Source: Dehalococcoidia bacterium (GTDB lineage Bacteria > Chloroflexota > Dehalococcoidia > Lucifugimonadales > UBA1123). Taken from it: DNA of 64,000 bases. Shown here in pieces: positions 53,921-64,000 of this stretch; position 1 is the first letter of the stretch; every line of letters begins with the position of its first letter. The stretch covers positions 2,280,293 through 2,344,292 of the forward strand of contig OY762210.1 in assembly GCA_963665255.1 (NCBI GenBank), given 5' to 3'. Under the pieces are notes generated by a model that was given only the letters and a program-made list of their open reading frames with translations, searched no databases and was not told the DNA's origin. A program made the position numbers and the translations under genes.

Positions 53921-55096
53921 ATGGCAGTTACGGCCAGCGCTGTGGTCATAGGCGGCGGTGTCATGGGAGCCAGCATACTGTTCAACCTCGCGAATCGAGG
54001 CGTGGATAGTCCAATCCTTCTGGAGCGCGACACGCTCGGGTCAGGCTCCACGGGACGTTCCTCCGGCGCCATTCGTATGCACTACTCGACCGAGGTCAAC
54101 GCACGACTCGCATGGGAGAGCCTTCACGTCTTCCAGAACTGGAGTGACGAGGTCGGCGGTGACGGCGATCCCGGCTTCGTAAGGACCGGATACATGGTCA
54201 TCGCACCGGAACGCGAGGTCGAGGGCTTTCACCACAACATAGAGATGCAGCAGCAGGTGGGAATCGACACGAGAATTGTAAGTTGGCAGGAGGCCAAGGA
54301 ACTCGCCCCGGACTTCCACCTCGGAGAGGACGAACACTTCGCATGGGAGGACCAGTCCGGGCACGGAGACCCCTCCGGAACTGCGCTGGCCTTCACCATG
54401 CGTGCTAGAGACCTGGGGGCGAGGGTCGTTCTGGAGTCCCCCGCAACGTCCATCGAAGTCGAAAACGGACGCGTGGTGGGAGTTCGAACGGGGGAAGAGC
54501 TATACTCGACCGACACCGCCGTCATCGCCACGGGGCCGTGGTCTTCGAGATTCCTGGGGCACCTTGACATCGACCTCCCACTCCTCGCAACGAGGCACGA
54601 GGTCATCTTAATCAGGCGGTCGGAGACTGGTGTCGGCCAGCATCCGGGCGGCGGGGACATGGCCAACCTGATCTACTTCAGGCCAGAGGCTGACAACCTG
54701 ACCCTTGTCGGCAATGGGAACCGGGAAGAAGAGGCGGACCCGGACACCTACAACCAGCGCGCTAGTACAGACTACGTCCAGGATGTATGGAGTCGTCTGG
54801 CCATGCGCATCCCCGGCATTGCCGACGGCCAGCTCGCTCATGGCTACGCCGGCCTCTACACTACTACCCCTGATCTGCACCCAGTCATGGACCGCGTCGA
54901 CGGCATCAAGGGCCTGTACATCTGCACCGGATTCAGCGGCCACGGATTCAAGCTCGCACCCGCGGTTGGCGTGTGCATGGCGGAGCTAATGCTTGAAGGC
55001 GATTCGAAGCTGGTAGACATCTCGACGCTGAGAATGGGCCGATTCTCGGACGGCTCCCTCAACACCACCCAGTACGACTTCAAGGTGATTGCATAA
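53921..55096 (+). CDS. FAD-dependent amine oxidoreductase (sarcosine oxidase beta/DAO family)
   Basis: VIGGGVMG, GSTGRSSG.IR.HY, TPD.HP, GFSGHGFKLAPAVG. Confidence 0.88.
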   Translation: MAVTASAVVIGGGVMGASILFNLANRGVDSPILLERDTLGSGSTGRSSGAIRMHYSTEVNARLAWESLHVFQNWSDEVGGDGDPGFVRTGYMVIAPEREVEGFHHNIEMQQQVGIDTRIVSWQEAKELAPDFHLGEDEHFAWEDQSGHGDPSGTALAFTMRARDLGARVVLESPATSIEVENGRVVGVRTGEELYSTDTAVIATGPWSSRFLGHLDIDLPLLATRHEVILIRRSETGVGQHPGGGDMANLIYFRPEADNLTLVGNGNREEEADPDTYNQRASTDYVQDVWSRLAMRIPGIADGQLAHGYAGLYTTTPDLHPVMDRVDGIKGLYICTGFSGHGFKLAPAVGVCMAELMLEGDSKLVDISTLRMGRFSDGSLNTTQYDFKVIA

Positions 55097-57636: not shown

Positions 57637-57705
57637 CTGATAACTCTCTCCAACCGTTGGCAGCCTAACGGCTGACCACTTAGCTACCCGGCTCCCAACT
57701 CTCCA

Positions 57706-57950
57706 ACAAAAAAACCCGTCCCCTGCTAGGGACGGGCCGTCGATTCGATACCCGCGGTACCACCCTGATTTCCGTCGCTTACGCAAACGGACGCTCATTG
57801 AGCTGTAACGGTGCTAACCGTCCGGCCTTACTGGTTACTTTCGGGCCGGAAGCTCGAGGGCGAGTTCAAGTCGGTCACTGCGCCGGGCTCTCACCTCTCC
57901 CCGGCTCTCTTGGGCCGATACCGACCTCTAATACTCCCTTTCGTAGCCTG
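57706..57950 (-). ncRNA. T-box riboswitch (Leu specifier CUC) with terminator, upstream of leuS
   Basis: Minus strand: GGAGTA, AGAGA, GGTGAGA, GAA-CTC specifier (57862-57867), T-box AGGGTGGTACCGCG (57753-57766), terminator CCCGTCCC...GGGACGGG-T7. Confidence 0.93.
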
Positions 57951-58015
57951 TGTCTATCTCGAAAACGCTAGCACAGCGTCAAAAGTAGAGTCAAGAAAAG
58001 TTGTCGGAATTCGTA

Positions 58016-58043
58016 TTGCCAATTCCCAAACTTCGGTTAGAAT
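58016..58043 (+). promoter_or_regulatory. Sigma70-like promoter for the DMG oxidase-like gene
   Basis: TTGCCA-N16-TAGAAT. Confidence 0.45.
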
Positions 58044-58146
58044 GCAAACACTAAGACAGACTTACATTCGCACCGACTTTCTGGCACTAGTCCACCATAG
58101 CAAACCAACACCGGTTTCGACTTAGTACATGCGAAGGACGCTTGAG

Positions 58147-60615
58147 ATGGCTGACATCAAGCTGCCAGAGAGGGCCAGAGCCGTAATCGTCGGCGCAGGC
58201 ATAGCCGGATGCAGCGTCGCCTACCACCTGGCAAAGCTGGGTTGGCGTGATGTAGTACTCGTCGATCAGGGTCCCCTATTCGAAACCGGGGGTTCCACGT
58301 CTCATGCCCCGGGTCTGGTCTTCCAGCTCAACGCGTCTAAGACCATGACCAACTTCGCGAGCTACACGGTCGATCTCTGGAAGCGGCTGGAACTGGAAGG
58401 CGTGCCCTGCGCAAATCCGGTGGGAAGCCTTGAGGTCGCCTGGAGTGACGAGAGATTCACCGACCTGAAGCGCAAGGCCGGGTACGGCATGAGTTGGGGG
58501 GTCGAGGCCCACCTGATCAGTCCCAGCGAGGCCCGCGCCATGATTCCGATGCTCTCGGACCGCATAAAAGGCGCGCTGTACGTTCCATCAGACGTCCATA
58601 CCAGAGCCACAAGGCCTGCAGAGGCGATGGCGAGGTATGCGGAGCAGAATGGCACCTCTCTCTTCGGCCATGTCGAAGTGACTGGCTTCAGCATCGAGAA
58701 CGGCCGTGTCTGCGCTGTGCAGACAACACAGGGTGACATCGAGACTGACCTGGTGGTGGCTGCAGTAGGCATCTGGGCGCCGAAGCTCGGGGGATTGGCA
58801 GGTGTCTCCATACCGCTTTCCCCGATGGAGCACCTCTACGCTGTTACTACTCCCCTTCCAGGCCTGGCCGGAGCCCAGAAGGAGGTTGATCAGCCGCTTC
58901 TCCGGCATCAGGACGCGTCCATGTACTTCCGGCAGGAAGGCGAGAGCTACGGCATCGGCTCATACAATCATGAGCCACTCCTCGTTGAGGCCAGCGACAT
59001 TCTGCCCATTGATGAGGCTCCAATTGCCCCTGCTGAGACAGAATTCACACCTGAGCATTTCGAGAAGGCGATGACGGCTGCCGGCGAACTTCTCCCTGAC
59101 CTCGAGGGAGTCGGGCTAACGCGTAAGTTCAACGGCATGTTCTCATTCACACAGGACGGATTCCCCATCCTCGGCGAGTCTCCCAGTCTCAAGGGATTCT
59201 GGTCGGCACAGGCCGTTTGGATCACTCACGCTGGTGGCGTCGGGAGAGCGGTTGCCGAGTGGATCGTCAACGGCGAACCTACGACGGACCTTCGTGAGTG
59301 CGACATCAGACGGTTCCATCCTCACGCGTTCAGTCGCCCCTACGTCAAGACAAGGTCTGCCCAGCAATACCGCGAGGTGTACGACATCATTCACCCGCGT
59401 CAGCAGATCGAGAACCCCAGGAATGTGAGGGTGACGCCGTTCTACACTCGACAGAAGGAATTGGGCGCCGTCTTCTTCGAGAACTCAGGCTGGGAGCGGC
59501 CTCAGTGGTACGACGCCAATGAGGGTCTGCTGGACTCCCTGACCGTCGCAGGAGAGTCGAGATCAGGCTGGGAGGCACGAGAATGGTCTCCCACCGTGGC
59601 AGCAGAACACGTTGCAGCTCGCGAACGCGTCGCCCTGTTCGACCTGACTCCGTTCGCCAAGTTCGAAGTCGCCGGACCGGGTGCACTCAAGGGACTTCAA
59701 CGCCTTGCTGCCAATCAGATGAACAAGCCTGTCGGATCGATTACATACACGCCGATGCTCACTCCCTCCGGAGGCATGAAATGCGACCTCACGATAACCC
59801 GACTCGCTGAGGACCGATTCATGGTGGTTACGGGTGGAGGAATGGGACTCCATGACCTGCACTGGATCGAGTCCCACATGCCGGACGACGGCTCTGTCAG
59901 AATCACCGACACCTCGTCGGGATCCTGCTGCATTGGTCTGTGGGGTCCCCGAGCGCGGGACCTGCTGAGCCGGGTGTGCGACGACGACCTATCAAACGAT
60001 GGGTTCCCGTACATGACGGCAAAGCCTGTTACCATCGCCGAAGTGCCTGCGCTTGCGCTCCGCATTTCGTATGTCGGAGAACTCGGCTGGGAGATTTACA
60101 CCCCCAGCGAACATGGCCTGAGGCTCTGGGACGTACTGTGGGAGGCAGGCCAGCCTCTGGGCGTCATCGCCGCCGGTGGAGGAGCGTTCGACTCGCTAAG
60201 GCTTGAGAAGGGCTACCGGCTGTGGGGCAACGACATCCACACCGAGTACAACCCATACGAGGCAGGGACGGGGTTCGCAGTTAGGATGCGAAAGGGTAAC
60301 TTCATCGGAAGGGACGCCCTCAGAGAAGTCCGCTCGAACGGAGTGAAGCACAAGCTCTGCTGCATCACCCTGGACGACCCCAACGCAGTCGTCACGGGCA
60401 AGGAACCGATCGTCGACGGCGACGAAGTACTCGGCTACGTAACAAGCGCAAACTACGGGCACTCAATCGGTCGCGGCATCGTGTACGGCTACTTGCCAGT
60501 GGGCCATGCCGAAGTGGGTACAAGTGTAGACGTGGTCTACTTTGGTGAACGTATGCAGGCCACGGTAGCTCAGGAACCGTTGTTCGACCCGACAGGTTCC
60601 AAGATGAAGGTGTAG
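58147..60615 (+). CDS. Dimethylglycine oxidase/dehydrogenase-like flavoprotein with GcvT (THF-binding) domain
   Basis: IVGAGIAG, GGSTSHAPGLVFQ (flavinylation His), EHLY, LRHQD..MYFR, GWERP.W, ISYVGELGWEIY, LRLEKGYR.WG. Confidence 0.9.
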   Translation: MADIKLPERARAVIVGAGIAGCSVAYHLAKLGWRDVVLVDQGPLFETGGSTSHAPGLVFQLNASKTMTNFASYTVDLWKRLELEGVPCANPVGSLEVAWSDERFTDLKRKAGYGMSWGVEAHLISPSEARAMIPMLSDRIKGALYVPSDVHTRATRPAEAMARYAEQNGTSLFGHVEVTGFSIENGRVCAVQTTQGDIETDLVVAAVGIWAPKLGGLAGVSIPLSPMEHLYAVTTPLPGLAGAQKEVDQPLLRHQDASMYFRQEGESYGIGSYNHEPLLVEASDILPIDEAPIAPAETEFTPEHFEKAMTAAGELLPDLEGVGLTRKFNGMFSFTQDGFPILGESPSLKGFWSAQAVWITHAGGVGRAVAEWIVNGEPTTDLRECDIRRFHPHAFSRPYVKTRSAQQYREVYDIIHPRQQIENPRNVRVTPFYTRQKELGAVFFENSGWERPQWYDANEGLLDSLTVAGESRSGWEAREWSPTVAAEHVAARERVALFDLTPFAKFEVAGPGALKGLQRLAANQMNKPVGSITYTPMLTPSGGMKCDLTITRLAEDRFMVVTGGGMGLHDLHWIESHMPDDGSVRITDTSSGSCCIGLWGPRARDLLSRVCDDDLSNDGFPYMTAKPVTIAEVPALALRISYVGELGWEIYTPSEHGLRLWDVLWEAGQPLGVIAAGGGAFDSLRLEKGYRLWGNDIHTEYNPYEAGTGFAVRMRKGNFIGRDALREVRSNGVKHKLCCITLDDPNAVVTGKEPIVDGDEVLGYVTSANYGHSIGRGIVYGYLPVGHAEVGTSVDVVYFGERMQATVAQEPLFDPTGSKMKV

Positions 60616-60743
60616 TTCAAATCCGAGTTGTGTCGGGTATTTGCCCGAGCAGGACGGAATCGCTCCTATCAACCCATTCGTAGAGTCAGTTAGTAGAAGC
60701 GCGTACATTCCGCGCTCAGCAGTTGTGGCAGGAGGAGGTCTCG

Positions 60744-61994
60744 GTGGTCAAGTCGATAAGCCATACGGTAACAAGGCCAGGCAGACGGTCTGGTGATCCA
60801 TGTGTCGACATACCGGTTCCCGCTGAGCTTGCCACGATACCGGGAATCCCGCAAAAACCTGTTGACGTGGCCTTCTACAGCAGAGAGCATCCGCTCGAGT
60901 CTCAGGCCGTGTACAAGTCCGCCGATCGCCAGTGGGCGGTCGTCCACCAGTCGAGCGACATCGACGACTTCAGGAAGGGCCACGACGAGCGAATGGAGCC
61001 GATGTACCAGGACGGGCTGGTGTCCGGCGACGTAGAGCCGACCGGTACGCCTGTCGCGGGCGAGGACTTGACGGATGACCTCCGAAGACTTGGCCGGGAG
61101 CTCGGATTTGGTGAAGTAGGCTTCGCCAAACACGACCGTCACTACACTTACTCGGGCAAGAAACGCTGGGCAAAGTTCGAGCACGCCATCTGTCTGGCTT
61201 ACGAGCAGGACTACCGGATGACACAGTCAGGCCCGAGTCCTGAGGCGGACCAGGCGCGATTCGAGACCTACGAGTTCGAGCAGGCTGGATGCCTGAAGCT
61301 GGCTGAATACATCAGGTCGAGAGGCTACCACGCGCAGGTCCACGATGGTTACGACTGCAGCGGCCCTTACATACCAATGTTCGTCGAGGCGGGACTGGGA
61401 CAGCTAGGCGCGAACGGTCAACTACTGTCACCACACTTCGGCTCGCGAGCGAGACTGATGCTGGTCACGACCAACGCTCCTGTCACATACGGCACGCCTG
61501 AGGACTACGGCATCCACAAGTTCTGCCAGGAGTGCCAGGTCTGCGTTAATCGCTGCCCAGGAAGGGCAATTTCACGAGACAAGGTCTGGTGGCGCGGGGT
61601 CGAGAAGAACAAGCTCATCTACGAACGCTGTCGGCCGATCATGGTTACCTATCACGGCTGTGCGGTCTGCATGATAGTCTGCCCAGTCCAGCGTTACGGG
61701 ATGAAGCCGGTGATGGAACACTACGTGGAGACTGGCGAAGTGCTGGGAAAGGGCACTGAGAACCTCGAAGGTTACCCGTTGAAGGGCAAGGGACACTTCG
61801 GCCCTGGGGAACTGCCGAGCTTCGAAAGAGGGTTCTTCGATATCCCACAGGGTCGTGAGGAAGACTGGCTCTTCGAACAGTTCAAAGAAAAGCTTCGCTC
61901 ATCTGGTGTTCCCGAAGAATCCGAATTGGTAGAATTCGCGTCCGTCGTGAAGAAAGTGCTGGATAAGGGCGAGACGACCTTCGACATCGCCTGA
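60744..61994 (+). CDS. Reductive dehalogenase/QueG-superfamily cobalamin and 2x[4Fe-4S] protein
   Basis: VGFA, AEYIRSRGY.A, AGLGQLGANGQLLSPHFGSRARL, CQECQVCVNRCP, C-x9-CAVCMIVCP; AGGAGGAGG RBS before GTG at 60744. Confidence 0.8.
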   Translation: MVKSISHTVTRPGRRSGDPCVDIPVPAELATIPGIPQKPVDVAFYSREHPLESQAVYKSADRQWAVVHQSSDIDDFRKGHDERMEPMYQDGLVSGDVEPTGTPVAGEDLTDDLRRLGRELGFGEVGFAKHDRHYTYSGKKRWAKFEHAICLAYEQDYRMTQSGPSPEADQARFETYEFEQAGCLKLAEYIRSRGYHAQVHDGYDCSGPYIPMFVEAGLGQLGANGQLLSPHFGSRARLMLVTTNAPVTYGTPEDYGIHKFCQECQVCVNRCPGRAISRDKVWWRGVEKNKLIYERCRPIMVTYHGCAVCMIVCPVQRYGMKPVMEHYVETGEVLGKGTENLEGYPLKGKGHFGPGELPSFERGFFDIPQGREEDWLFEQFKEKLRSSGVPEESELVEFASVVKKVLDKGETTFDIA

Positions 61995-62017
61995 GAAGTG
62001 GTTGAAGCCGACGGATT

Positions 62018-62902
62018 GTGGAGGCTCAGTTGCAGACGTTTTCCGAATCGCTGAAGTCCGGCAAGTTCGTAGTTACCACCGAGCTGAACCCTCCGAAGGG
62101 TACAGACCTCCGAAGGCTGTTCAGGGAGGCCGATTCCCTCAGCGGCATGGTTGACGCATTCAACCTTACGGACTCCCCTGGAGCCAACATGTCGATGGCG
62201 CCCATCGCAGCTGCGCACCTGATGCGGGACCGCAATATTGAACCCATACTGCAGGTGACCGGTCGCGACCGTAATCGTATTGCGATCGAGGGAGAGATAC
62301 TCGCGGCAGCCGCGCTGGGAGTCACCAATGTCCTGTGCATGAGTGGGGACCCCCCAGGCCGTGGCGATCACCCAGATGCGGTGGGAGTCTTCGATCTCAG
62401 GGCTGAGACGCTGCTAGAGGCCGTTTCAGCGATGAACTCAGGCACAGACATGTACGGCAACGACCTTAGGGGTACCCCGTCCATACTTGCGGGCGCCGTC
62501 GCCAATCCTGGCGCCGATGACCTGGACGTCGAGCTTGCCCGCATGGAGGAGAAGGTGCGCATGGGAGCGTCCTTCTTCCAGACCCAGGCAGTCTATGATG
62601 CCGCGACGTTCCAGACGTTCATGGAAACCGCCCGGGGATTCGGAGTGCCCGTACTTGCCGGCATGATCGTACTCAAATCGGCGCGAATGGCGAGATTCCT
62701 GGATGCAAATTTGCCCGGCGTATCTGTGCCAGACAGCATCATCGAGGAGATGGACTCAGCAGATGTGCCGGCTGAGACCAGCATCGAAATCACTTCCCGT
62801 CTCATCCGGGATGTACGCGACATGTGCGACGGTACGCACATTATGGCCATCGGTTGGGAGTCCCGCATTCCCGAGATTCTGGAGGGATCCGGCCTGGTCT
62901 GA
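62018..62902 (+). CDS. metF: Methylenetetrahydrofolate reductase
   Basis: ELNPPKG, NLTD, RDRNRIA, SGDPP..GDHP, K...GA.FFQTQAVYD, H.MAIG. Confidence 0.9.
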   Translation: MEAQLQTFSESLKSGKFVVTTELNPPKGTDLRRLFREADSLSGMVDAFNLTDSPGANMSMAPIAAAHLMRDRNIEPILQVTGRDRNRIAIEGEILAAAALGVTNVLCMSGDPPGRGDHPDAVGVFDLRAETLLEAVSAMNSGTDMYGNDLRGTPSILAGAVANPGADDLDVELARMEEKVRMGASFFQTQAVYDAATFQTFMETARGFGVPVLAGMIVLKSARMARFLDANLPGVSVPDSIIEEMDSADVPAETSIEITSRLIRDVRDMCDGTHIMAIGWESRIPEILEGSGLV

Positions 62903-63086
62903 TTGACAGCACCCAGGGTGTCTGATGAATCCCCACCTCCTGGCATTCCAGAGAACCATGGGGATGTTGCGTCTTCCACCCTGCCCCTTAGTTCTGCCCA
63001 ATAAGTGAAAGGAGGCGACTTGCACAAATCACACAGCGGAATCACTTAGCGTTGTCAGATTAAGGCTGAACAACTGGAGGAAAATA

Positions 63087-64000
63087 ATGGGGGAAACTCT
63101 GGTTATCGATGGTCTGAAGAAGAGGATCTTGCCCGTGAACCTTCGGCAGAGCGGAAACAGCGACGCGAGGATGCTTATCTCAACCCGCGTCAGGAAGTCT
63201 CCGTGGTGGCACATGTCGAAGGCCGCAGGCTGCTGGGCATACACGGTTTACAACCACCTTTATCACCCTCGAGCGTACATCAAACCCGAAGACGGTGGCC
63301 TTATGGCCGAGTACGAGACATTAACGAATCACGTGAGTATGTGGGACGTCGCCGTCGAACGTCAGATTCAGGTCAAAGGCCCTGACGCAGCCGCATTTGT
63401 GGACTATCTGATTACACGCGACGTTTACGAGCGTGTCCCAACCATGCAGGCCCGGTACGTGATCCTGTGCAACCAGCACGGTGGCATAATCAACGACCCG
63501 GTGCTCCTGCGCGTAGCCGATGACGAATTTTGGTTCAGCATCTCAGATTCGGACGTACTGCTTTGGGCGCAGGGCGTCAATTCCACTGGCAGGTTCAACG
63601 CGGAAGTTCACGAGATAGACGTGTCTCCAGTCCAGATACAGGGTCCCAAGTCAGTGGACCTACTCGAAAAGATCGTCGGTCCACATGTGAGGGAGATTCC
63701 CTATTACGGGCTGATCCACGATACTGTGAACGGCTACCCAGTGACGATTTCGCGAACCGGCTTCTCCGCGGAGGTTGGTTTCGAGATCTACCTGCACAAC
63801 GCGATGCTCTATTCGGACGAGATCTGGCCTTACATTATGGAACAGGGTGAGGAATTCAATCTGGGAGTCATTGCCCCAAGCCATATCCGGCGACTGGAAG
63901 CCGGTATTCTCTCATACGGCCAGGACATGGACATCGAGAGTAACCCCTTCGAGGTCCGACTCGGCTGGCAGGTGGACCTGCAGAAAGGTGACTACATAGG
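63087..64000 (+). CDS. GcvT-family THF-dependent aminomethyltransferase, DmdA-like (partial)
   Basis: Manual translation from GGAGG RBS and ATG at 63087: R.RKSPW, YTVYNHLYHP, MWDVAVERQIQVKGPDA, GIINDPVLLR, SISDSD, QGPKS, SRTGFS.E.GFEIY, RRLEAGILSYGQD; no stop before the window end. Confidence 0.9.
   Translation, partial: MGETLVIDGLKKRILPVNLRQSGNSDARMLISTRVRKSPWWHMSKAAGCWAYTVYNHLYHPRAYIKPEDGGLMAEYETLTNHVSMWDVAVERQIQVKGPDAAAFVDYLITRDVYERVPTMQARYVILCNQHGGIINDPVLLRVADDEFWFSISDSDVLLWAQGVNSTGRFNAEVHEIDVSPVQIQGPKSVDLLEKIVGPHVREIPYYGLIHDTVNGYPVTISRTGFSAEVGFEIYLHNAMLYSDEIWPYIMEQGEEFNLGVIAPSHIRRLEAGILSYGQDMDIESNPFEVRLGWQVDLQKGDYI

Follow-up and report, generated by a model that had tools for sequence, protein, structure and literature searches.

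To our knowledge, dehalogenation and epoxyqueuosine reduction are the only chemistries established for enzymes of the RdhA fold. Between them, the demethylation of dimethylsulfoniopropionate (DMSP) by DmdA and MetF and the aerobic route from glycine betaine to glycine (dimethylglycine oxidase/dehydrogenase and sarcosine oxidase) have the features predicted for the locus reported here: GcvT-type methyl transfer to tetrahydrofolate (THF), interconversion of methyl- and methylene-THF by MetF, and an oxidase of the flavoprotein type that carries a THF domain. We analyzed a 64,000-nucleotide (nt) stretch, referred to as the window (C1:2280293-2344292), of the 3.71-Mb single-contig genome (C1; completeness 98%) of a Dehalococcoidia bacterium (GCA_963665255.1), in which a gene for an RdhA-family protein is found among genes for an N,N-dimethylglycine (DMG) oxidase-like flavoprotein, MetF, and a DmdA-like GcvT-family methyltransferase. 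These four open reading frames (ORFs) on the + strand, downstream of divergent leuS, belong to a conserved operon-like module of a sponge-associated Dehalococcoidia genus of the SAR202 type. An earlier note on this DNA had described four co-oriented genes here and read them as a folate-linked demethylation cluster. Its description was correct in every point checked, and the cluster is real. The locus as a whole is best explained as a THF-linked demethylation core joined by an accessory RdhA-type reductase, a reading to which we give about an even chance.

The linkage was surveyed among relatives of the RdhA-like protein. In species-representative genomes, 596 stretches matched the search patterns, 546 were confirmed, and the best 80 of these 546 were analyzed as loci. 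Most came from Dehalococcoidia metagenome-assembled genomes (one titled SAR202), with some from Entotheonella and Rokuibacteriota and one from a gammaproteobacterium. A tree was built from 84 rows of RdhA-like proteins, in which the window's own protein and three paralogues encoded in its genome were added to the 80 loci and one distant homologue (L086) was left out. Using the window's own proteins as queries, a neighbor was counted when identity was at least 45%, coverage at least 50%, the strand the same, and the distance no more than 9 kb. The window's protein fell in an ortholog clade of 45 rows (SH-aLRT 100). Of the 45 ortholog-clade loci, 38 had one or more of the partner genes (DMG oxidase, MetF, or DmdA-like), as against 0 of the 39 rows in other clades; the linkage of the RdhA-like gene with its partners is therefore beyond chance. 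It also recurs in many species and is not unique to this genome, so that one of the refutations named in the earlier note fails. All three partners were found in 24 of the 45 rows. Nine rows, which made up one subclade, had the DMG oxidase and DmdA-like genes and no MetF, two had the oxidase gene only (one of them cut by a contig end), and a single row each had MetF with the DmdA-like gene (contig cut upstream), the DmdA-like gene only, or the oxidase gene with MetF; the remaining seven had no partner. The core was unchanged while the flanking genes varied among subclades of the linked clade. The constant partners of the module were the DMG oxidase and the DmdA-like GcvT protein, usually with MetF and the RdhA-family protein between them. 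In the 39 rows of other clades, the commonest context consisted of rsmG, a gene for an LPG-synthase transmembrane (TM) protein, the RdhA-like gene, ilvD, and ccm genes.

The presence of the genes was further surveyed in 101 genomes (this genome and 100 relatives), with the RdhA ortholog set at 72% identity or higher. The DmdA-like gene was detected in 33 genomes, including 26 of the 30 genus members with this genome counted. The RdhA ortholog was detected in 26 genomes, all of which had the DmdA-like gene, and the DmdA-like gene occurred without an RdhA ortholog in 7 of its 33 genomes. In this sample, the core was thus found without the reductase, and the reductase ortholog was never found without the GcvT gene; one 68%-complete genome had a 69%-identical RdhA copy and no DmdA-like match. 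In three genomes of the same genus (L108, L113, and L114), the oxidase gene was followed directly by MetF and the DmdA-like gene with no RdhA gene between. These loci nested at two places within reductase-bearing groups in the tree of DmdA-like proteins, which implies that the reductase gene was lost at least twice. A linked reductase was also found in other families of the order (L096 and L115). The genomes are close kin, and the counts are therefore not independent. Together, these results indicated that the reductase is an accessory that is dispensable to the demethylation core.

The RdhA-like protein scored 99.4 bits against the curated RdhA model TIGR02486, below the cut-off of 160.35, and had no match to the Pfam RdhA family PF13486. 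An ordinary QueG was ruled out as its identity, as the protein scored 49.4 bits against the QueG model TIGR00276 (cut-off 200) and the true QueG of this genome was located elsewhere (C1:33954-34955, 352.5 bits against the same cut-off); the RdhA fold named in the earlier note was upheld. Using a profile of 19 family members, the best solved relatives were NpRdhA (E 6e-30) and PceA (E 3e-20), with QueG matched weakly. The top Foldseek matches of the AlphaFold model were all RdhAs with E values of about 1e-11, and QueG followed at about 1e-5. In the alignment of the 19 sequences, the cysteines of both 4Fe-4S motifs (CxxCxxCxxxCP, C268, C271, C274, and C278; C...CxxCxxxCP, C303, C313, C316, and C320) were invariant. 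Y183 and R244 were invariant as well and aligned to Y426 and K488 of NpRdhA and to Y246 and R305 of PceA, the catalytic Tyr of these enzymes and its Arg or Lys partner. The counterpart of NpRdhA R552 was Met. Conserved extensions of about 100 amino acids (aa) at the N-terminus and about 95 aa at the C-terminus belonged to no known family, and a search of the ESM Atlas matched only clusters named '4Fe-4S binding domain protein'. By eye, no twin-arginine translocation (TAT) signal (RRxFxK plus a hydrophobic stretch) was seen in the N-terminus, and no small membrane-protein gene for an RdhB-type anchor was found in the cluster, which fits a cytoplasmic, catabolic type. The profile search, the structure match, the Tyr/Arg alignment, the separate QueG, and the lack of a TAT signal and anchor gene together argue that the protein is a distinct cytoplasmic branch of the RdhAs and not an ordinary QueG.

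The oxidase of the cluster matched the solved Arthrobacter DMG oxidase (1PJ5) with 835.9 bits (E 3e-250; residues 10-820 versus 5-828), which bears out the earlier label of a DMG oxidase-like flavoprotein with a THF domain. Residues H48, H225, and Y259 of 1PJ5, which presumably have catalytic roles, were identical at the aligned positions. The second reading of the earlier note, by which a halogenated methylated metabolite would be both dehalogenated and demethylated, may hold, but so close a match to DMG oxidase favors a small substrate over one that is bulky and halogenated. A gene already described as sarcosine-oxidase-like was indeed a DAO-family gene; it scored 138 bits against both soxA_mon and MTOX, below the cut-off of each. 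This gene was syntenic in the 5 closest loci, and another subclade had a different DAO gene downstream of the cluster. The flavoprotein that it encodes is a possible candidate for the last demethylation step.

The best family of the GcvT protein was DmdA (NF009133), with 322.8 bits over 417 aa, below the cut-off of 410; its score against Pelagibacter DmdA (3TFH) was 230.2 bits. The folate-binding Glu and Tyr were kept (GFEIY). A study of DmdA evolution names W171 as the key DMSP contact; DmdA clades have W there, and one clade outside DmdA has F (PMC7487153). We located this position in the 3TFH alignment by way of the E-x-Y folate motif, and this inferred mapping puts the F of the motif RTGFSAEVGFEIY at the W of DmdA; F was likewise present in all 30 matches to the motif that a scan of the locus ORFs gave. 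Given a score below the curated cut-off and F in place of the DMSP-contact W, the GcvT protein is unlikely to be a true DmdA. The earlier designation as DmdA-like therefore stands for the best-matching family and probably does not extend to DmdA proper.

The MetF of the cluster was divergent. It scored 115 bits against PF02219 (cut-off 24), fell below the cut-off on all three NCBIfam models, and matched the methylenetetrahydrofolate reductase (MTHFR) half of PRK08645 with 240.1 bits and the solved Thermus MTHFR with 52.6 bits only. There were two MTHFR genes in the genome, and since the second lies elsewhere, the MetF in the cluster looks dedicated to it. A predicted complex of MetF with the RdhA-like protein scored 0.00 against a mark of 0.32, which speaks neither for nor against binding. 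The second MTHFR-domain gene (59.8 bits; L117 4720-6142, equal to C1:2060719-2062141, - strand) adjoined a gene for a 144-aa double-zinc-ribbon protein, a pair that resembles the MetV-MetF pairs of acetogens.

The pairing of methyltransferase and oxidase was constant and a DAO-family oxidase was located nearby in several lineages, which suggests a route from glycine betaine via dimethylglycine and sarcosine to glycine. We tentatively propose, at somewhat less than even confidence, that the substrate of the GcvT protein is an onium compound, most likely glycine betaine. In such a route, the GcvT protein would transfer a methyl group from glycine betaine to THF, yielding dimethylglycine and 5-methyl-THF, and MetF would oxidize methyl-THF to methylene-THF. 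The oxidase would convert dimethylglycine to sarcosine with formation of methylene-THF, and the nearby DAO-family oxidase would convert sarcosine to glycine. The RdhA-like protein would act in the cytoplasm as a non-respiratory enzyme of two-electron reductive cleavage, with attack by Co(I) and a Tyr as the proton donor. Its substrate may accompany or feed the pathway, such as an organobromine, another C-X compound, or an S-oxide or N-oxide of the sponge habitat. As for the rest of the one-carbon and B12 complement, the genome had only four GCV_T proteins, MetH, two other homocysteine S-methyltransferase-family proteins, B12-dependent enzymes, and CobS; neither an MttB-family protein nor CbiC was found in it. 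A corrinoid methyltransferase-like cluster was observed elsewhere (L118 4222-7812, equal to C1:1574221-1577811, - strand), encoding a B12-binding protein, a URO-D protein of the MtaA/MtbA type, a 238-aa protein without a family match, and a homocysteine S-methyltransferase-family protein.

The features of the locus are listed in the table. The gap between the RdhA-like gene and MetF is the 23 nt given by the earlier note if MetF starts at GTG 62018, and 35 nt from the likelier TTG start. The sequence beyond position 64000, to which that note had pointed, completed the GcvT gene and then held a convergent gene for a major facilitator superfamily (MFS) transporter. GC content was even throughout the region. 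In a consensus scan of positions 57700-64000, the promoter-like site upstream of the oxidase gene was the sole one, versus 1.8 expected by chance, and the promoter evidence is therefore weak. A weak consensus scan for terminator-like sites found none in the gaps among the four genes; the sole site on the + strand (63887-63904) was internal to the DmdA-like gene. No other electron-transfer gene was found within the cluster, and the genes at 32-50 kb of the window included nothing related to it. RNA-library contigs of four studies covered parts of all four genes at 88-99% identity, and one contig (X20, 60515-60778) bridged the end of the oxidase gene and the start of the reductase gene; such contigs cannot prove transcription or a single transcript, and uncovered stretches are not evidence of silence. 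A peak of RNA depth at 61417-61617 was rejected as a sign of expression, since it stems from the conserved Fe-S motif, which genes of other organisms share, and the pieces have loose ends on both sides.

Table. Features of the demethylation cluster and its surroundings, in window positions.
Feature	Position	Strand	Remarks
N,N-dimethylglycine oxidase-like flavoprotein, 828 aa	58129-60615	+	DAO, FAO_M, GCV_T, and GCV_T_C domains; start possibly ATG 58147
RdhA-family protein, 416 aa, two 4Fe-4S motifs, presumed cobamide site	60744-61994	+	GTG start after AGGAGGAGG
Divergent methylenetetrahydrofolate reductase (MetF)	62018-62902	+	PF02219; likelier start TTG 62030 behind GGAGG
DmdA-like GcvT-family methyltransferase, 417 aa	63087-64340 (window part to 64000)	+	GCV_T and GCV_T_C domains
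Monomeric sarcosine-oxidase-like DAO flavoprotein	53921-55096	+	DAO 222 bits; leuS between gene and cluster
Promoter-like site upstream of oxidase gene	58016-58043	+	TTGCCA, 16 nt, TAGAAT; 10/12 matches

An Rfam scan found no riboswitch for the cluster, its sole match being the T-box leader upstream of leuS (57725-57953, - strand; 120.8 bits versus a gathering score of 93). A 104-aa ORF (57811-58125, + strand) overlaps this T-box, has no family match, and is probably not a gene.

The family of the RdhA-like protein is large. Among 7996 scored candidates, 2069 proteins had E values of 0.001 or lower, and an exhaustive search of 50%-identity representatives gave 2432 matches, 95 of them with E values of 1e-30 or lower. 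The best 120 homologues were nearly all 415-418 aa long, with identities of 65-98%. In a broad sample of phyla, the family was detected in 5 of 401 genomes with E values of 1e-60 or lower, which indicates patchy spread and not absence. Hints of habitat were few: one homologue was named from Geodia barretti, and one sponge-metagenome RNA run had pieces that were 95-99% alike. Of the 2432 relatives, the best 150 included no protein fused to GcvT or MetF; the longer forms among these 150 either combined the domain with an Opp/Dpp ABC ATPase, which is likely read-through, or were a BhbA-like fusion with an FNR-type reductase. Three further paralogues in this genome were 61, 57, and 50% identical to the RdhA-like protein. 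The contexts of these paralogues and of the other clades included rsmG, the LPG-synthase TM protein gene, ilvD, ccm genes, DinB_2, CMD, an amidohydrolase gene, and TauE, and they gave no functional lead.

Several loci of this family deserve a description of their own. Members of one paralogous clade (L047-L082) shared 63-67% identity with the window protein in Dehalococcoidia, Entotheonella, Rokuibacteriota, and the gammaproteobacterium alike, which is unusually high across phyla. In Dehalococcoidia, they were located between rsmG with the LPG-synthase TM gene on one side and ilvD with ccm genes on the other, and in the other phyla near genes of the DinB_2 and CMD families. One paralogue (L084 7472-9229, equal to C1:2406471-2408228) was 585 aa long with an N-terminal extension of no known family, and its neighbors encoded an amidohydrolase, a TauE-type exporter, an enolase-superfamily protein, and a GNAT/SCP2 protein. 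In the MetF-less subclade, one locus (L023 838-5220) had 5' of the cluster the genes for a type II haloacid dehalogenase, two phosphoglycolate-phosphatase-like HADs, an MBL-fold hydrolase, and a divergent flavin mononucleotide-dependent 2-hydroxyacid oxidase; the proteins that these genes encode all act on small alpha-substituted acids. In two other loci (L022 9812-12346 and L024 9447-11951), an unlinked RdhA ortholog was followed on the same strand by a gene whose product is about 840 aa long; the product from L022, which alone was scanned, matched no Pfam family.

What the RdhA-like protein does beside the core can be explained in other ways. It may be a functionally unrelated neighbor, an ordinary catabolic or detoxifying debrominase of halophenol-type sponge metabolites that has been co-inherited since an ancestral insertion between the oxidase gene and MetF. 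This explanation, rather unlikely in our estimate, remains a strong rival. The Tyr/Arg pair of dehalogenases was kept, and one report documents TAT-less marine RdhAs that are active on bromophenols, debrominating 2,6-dibromophenol (PMC13101508). The repeated loss of the reductase gene while its neighbors were retained, the location of 7 of 45 orthologues elsewhere, and the four different contexts of the four paralogues in this genome are in line with it, as is a haloacid dehalogenase gene (TIGR01428, 141.6 bits versus a cut-off of 125.4) three genes upstream in one subclade. However, the reductase held its position between the same two genes though the flanks of the subclades had all changed, and it was linked in other families of the order too. 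The short intergenic gaps without a terminator-like site, the RNA contig across the oxidase-reductase junction, and the GcvT gene in 26 of 26 ortholog-bearing genomes also argue against an unrelated neighbor. A different possibility, which we regard as quite unlikely, is that the RdhA-like enzyme has been turned to a non-halogen substrate of the pathway, acting by Co(I) cleavage or deoxygenation with electrons from the methyl-group oxidation of its flavoprotein neighbors. It might then cleave X-CH2-COO- compounds in the manner of betaine reductase, or it might reduce either dimethylsulfoxonium propionate or an amine oxide, and the resulting onium compound or amine would subsequently be demethylated by GcvT and the oxidase.

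Two further explanations tie the protein directly to the folate enzymes. Methyl-THF oxidation requires an acceptor more positive than NAD+, the cluster has no other electron-transfer gene, and the reductase gene lies 23-35 nt upstream of MetF; the RdhA-like protein could accordingly be a redox partner that takes electrons from the flavin adenine dinucleotide of MetF or of the oxidase, a wire or sink like MetV, the Fe-S subunit of acetogen MTHFR. This idea, in our judgment a shade less probable than a non-halogen substrate, is weakened because the cluster has the reductase without MetF in the nine-locus subclade and MetF without the reductase in three genomes. Moreover, the conserved Tyr/Arg pair and a 416-aa RdhA fold exceed the needs of a wire, and the oxidase resembles one that uses O2. 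The earlier note had also suggested a new one-carbon role for the corrinoid protein, by which the RdhA cobamide would be the Co(I) acceptor of methyl groups from quaternary amines and pass them to THF via GcvT. Quaternary amines donate their methyl groups poorly, and the anaerobic systems known to act on them rely on Co(I) corrinoid proteins; no MttB-family methyltransferase was detected in this genome, and the Fe-S clusters could conceivably be a built-in reductive activator. Nevertheless, the GcvT gene is also found, and has been retained, where the reductase is absent (as is the core in three genomes), none of the best 150 of 2432 relatives was a reductase-GcvT fusion, and the conserved proton-donor Tyr of the Tyr/Arg pair suits reduction rather than methyl transfer, for which we know of no RdhA-fold enzyme. 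The suggestion was therefore not borne out, and we consider such a methyl carrier highly improbable.

Several observations weigh against a demethylation core with an accessory reductase. The linked loci belong nearly all to one genus and a few relatives, and shared ancestry inflates the counts. The seven reductase orthologs with no partner were found in unrelated contexts, and in three genomes (G421, G427, and G456) the reductase and GcvT genes were both present and far apart. Contigs from two studies (X15 record 4; X19 records 22 and 23) started at 62906, 4 nt past the MetF stop, and ran into the DmdA-like gene, a weak sign that this last gene may have a transcript of its own. The AlphaFold model of the RdhA-like protein was moderate (pLDDT 64.6), and cobamide binding is presumed from homology alone. 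The GcvT protein could instead belong to a split sarcosine dehydrogenase as its THF-binding half, and the two homocysteine S-methyltransferase-family proteins of the genome could already turn betaine into dimethylglycine. There was also no betaine transporter within the cluster. With regard to G456 itself, its DmdA-like match (G456:C3:1200330-1201569) was in two pieces with internal TGA stops and may be broken, and its RdhA ortholog was located 0.6 Mb from this split gene.

A search of full-text literature, with subscription journals outside its coverage, found no description of an arrangement of RdhA with folate or demethylation genes, nor of a GcvT-type betaine demethylase, and the literature searched did not describe a folate-enzyme context for any RdhA. 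The analysis brings out a large, very conserved, uncharacterized RdhA subfamily, one clade of which is held in a folate-linked demethylation module of abundant sponge and deep-sea Dehalococcoidia, and the context of the module provides a short list of substrates for this orphan B12 enzyme. A DmdA-like protein that is probably no DMSP demethylase matters for metagenomic counts of dmdA. The module also suggests how Dehalococcoidia symbionts may use methylated osmolytes of the host or of algae. If the reductase is only a debrominase, it would still be an example of a catabolic RdhA in symbionts of an aerobic type. If it acts instead on a non-halogen substrate of the pathway with electrons from its flavoprotein neighbors, it would add a third chemistry to the RdhA/QueG superfamily and close a self-contained redox loop within the catabolism of methylated osmolytes.

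Compared to described systems, the RdhA-like protein has in common with NpRdhA of Nitratireductor pacificus (PDB 4RAS and 6ZXU), a catabolic and non-respiratory enzyme, and with PceA (4UQU) the predicted cobamide-binding core, the two 4Fe-4S motifs, and the positions of Tyr and of Arg or Lys. Like NpRdhA, it has no export signal; whereas NpRdhA is about 700 aa long with a duplicated N-terminal half, the RdhA-like protein is a single domain of 416 aa. QueG shares the superfamily fold and the presumed set of Fe-S and cobamide cofactors, but the protein differs from it in the score on the QueG model (49.4 bits versus a cut-off of 200) and in structure comparison (Foldseek E 1e-5 versus 1e-11 for RdhAs). 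The GcvT protein differs from DmdA by its score below the cut-off and by F at the DMSP-contact W. Lastly, the DMSP and glycine betaine routes differ from this cluster, which has an RdhA-family gene inside it.

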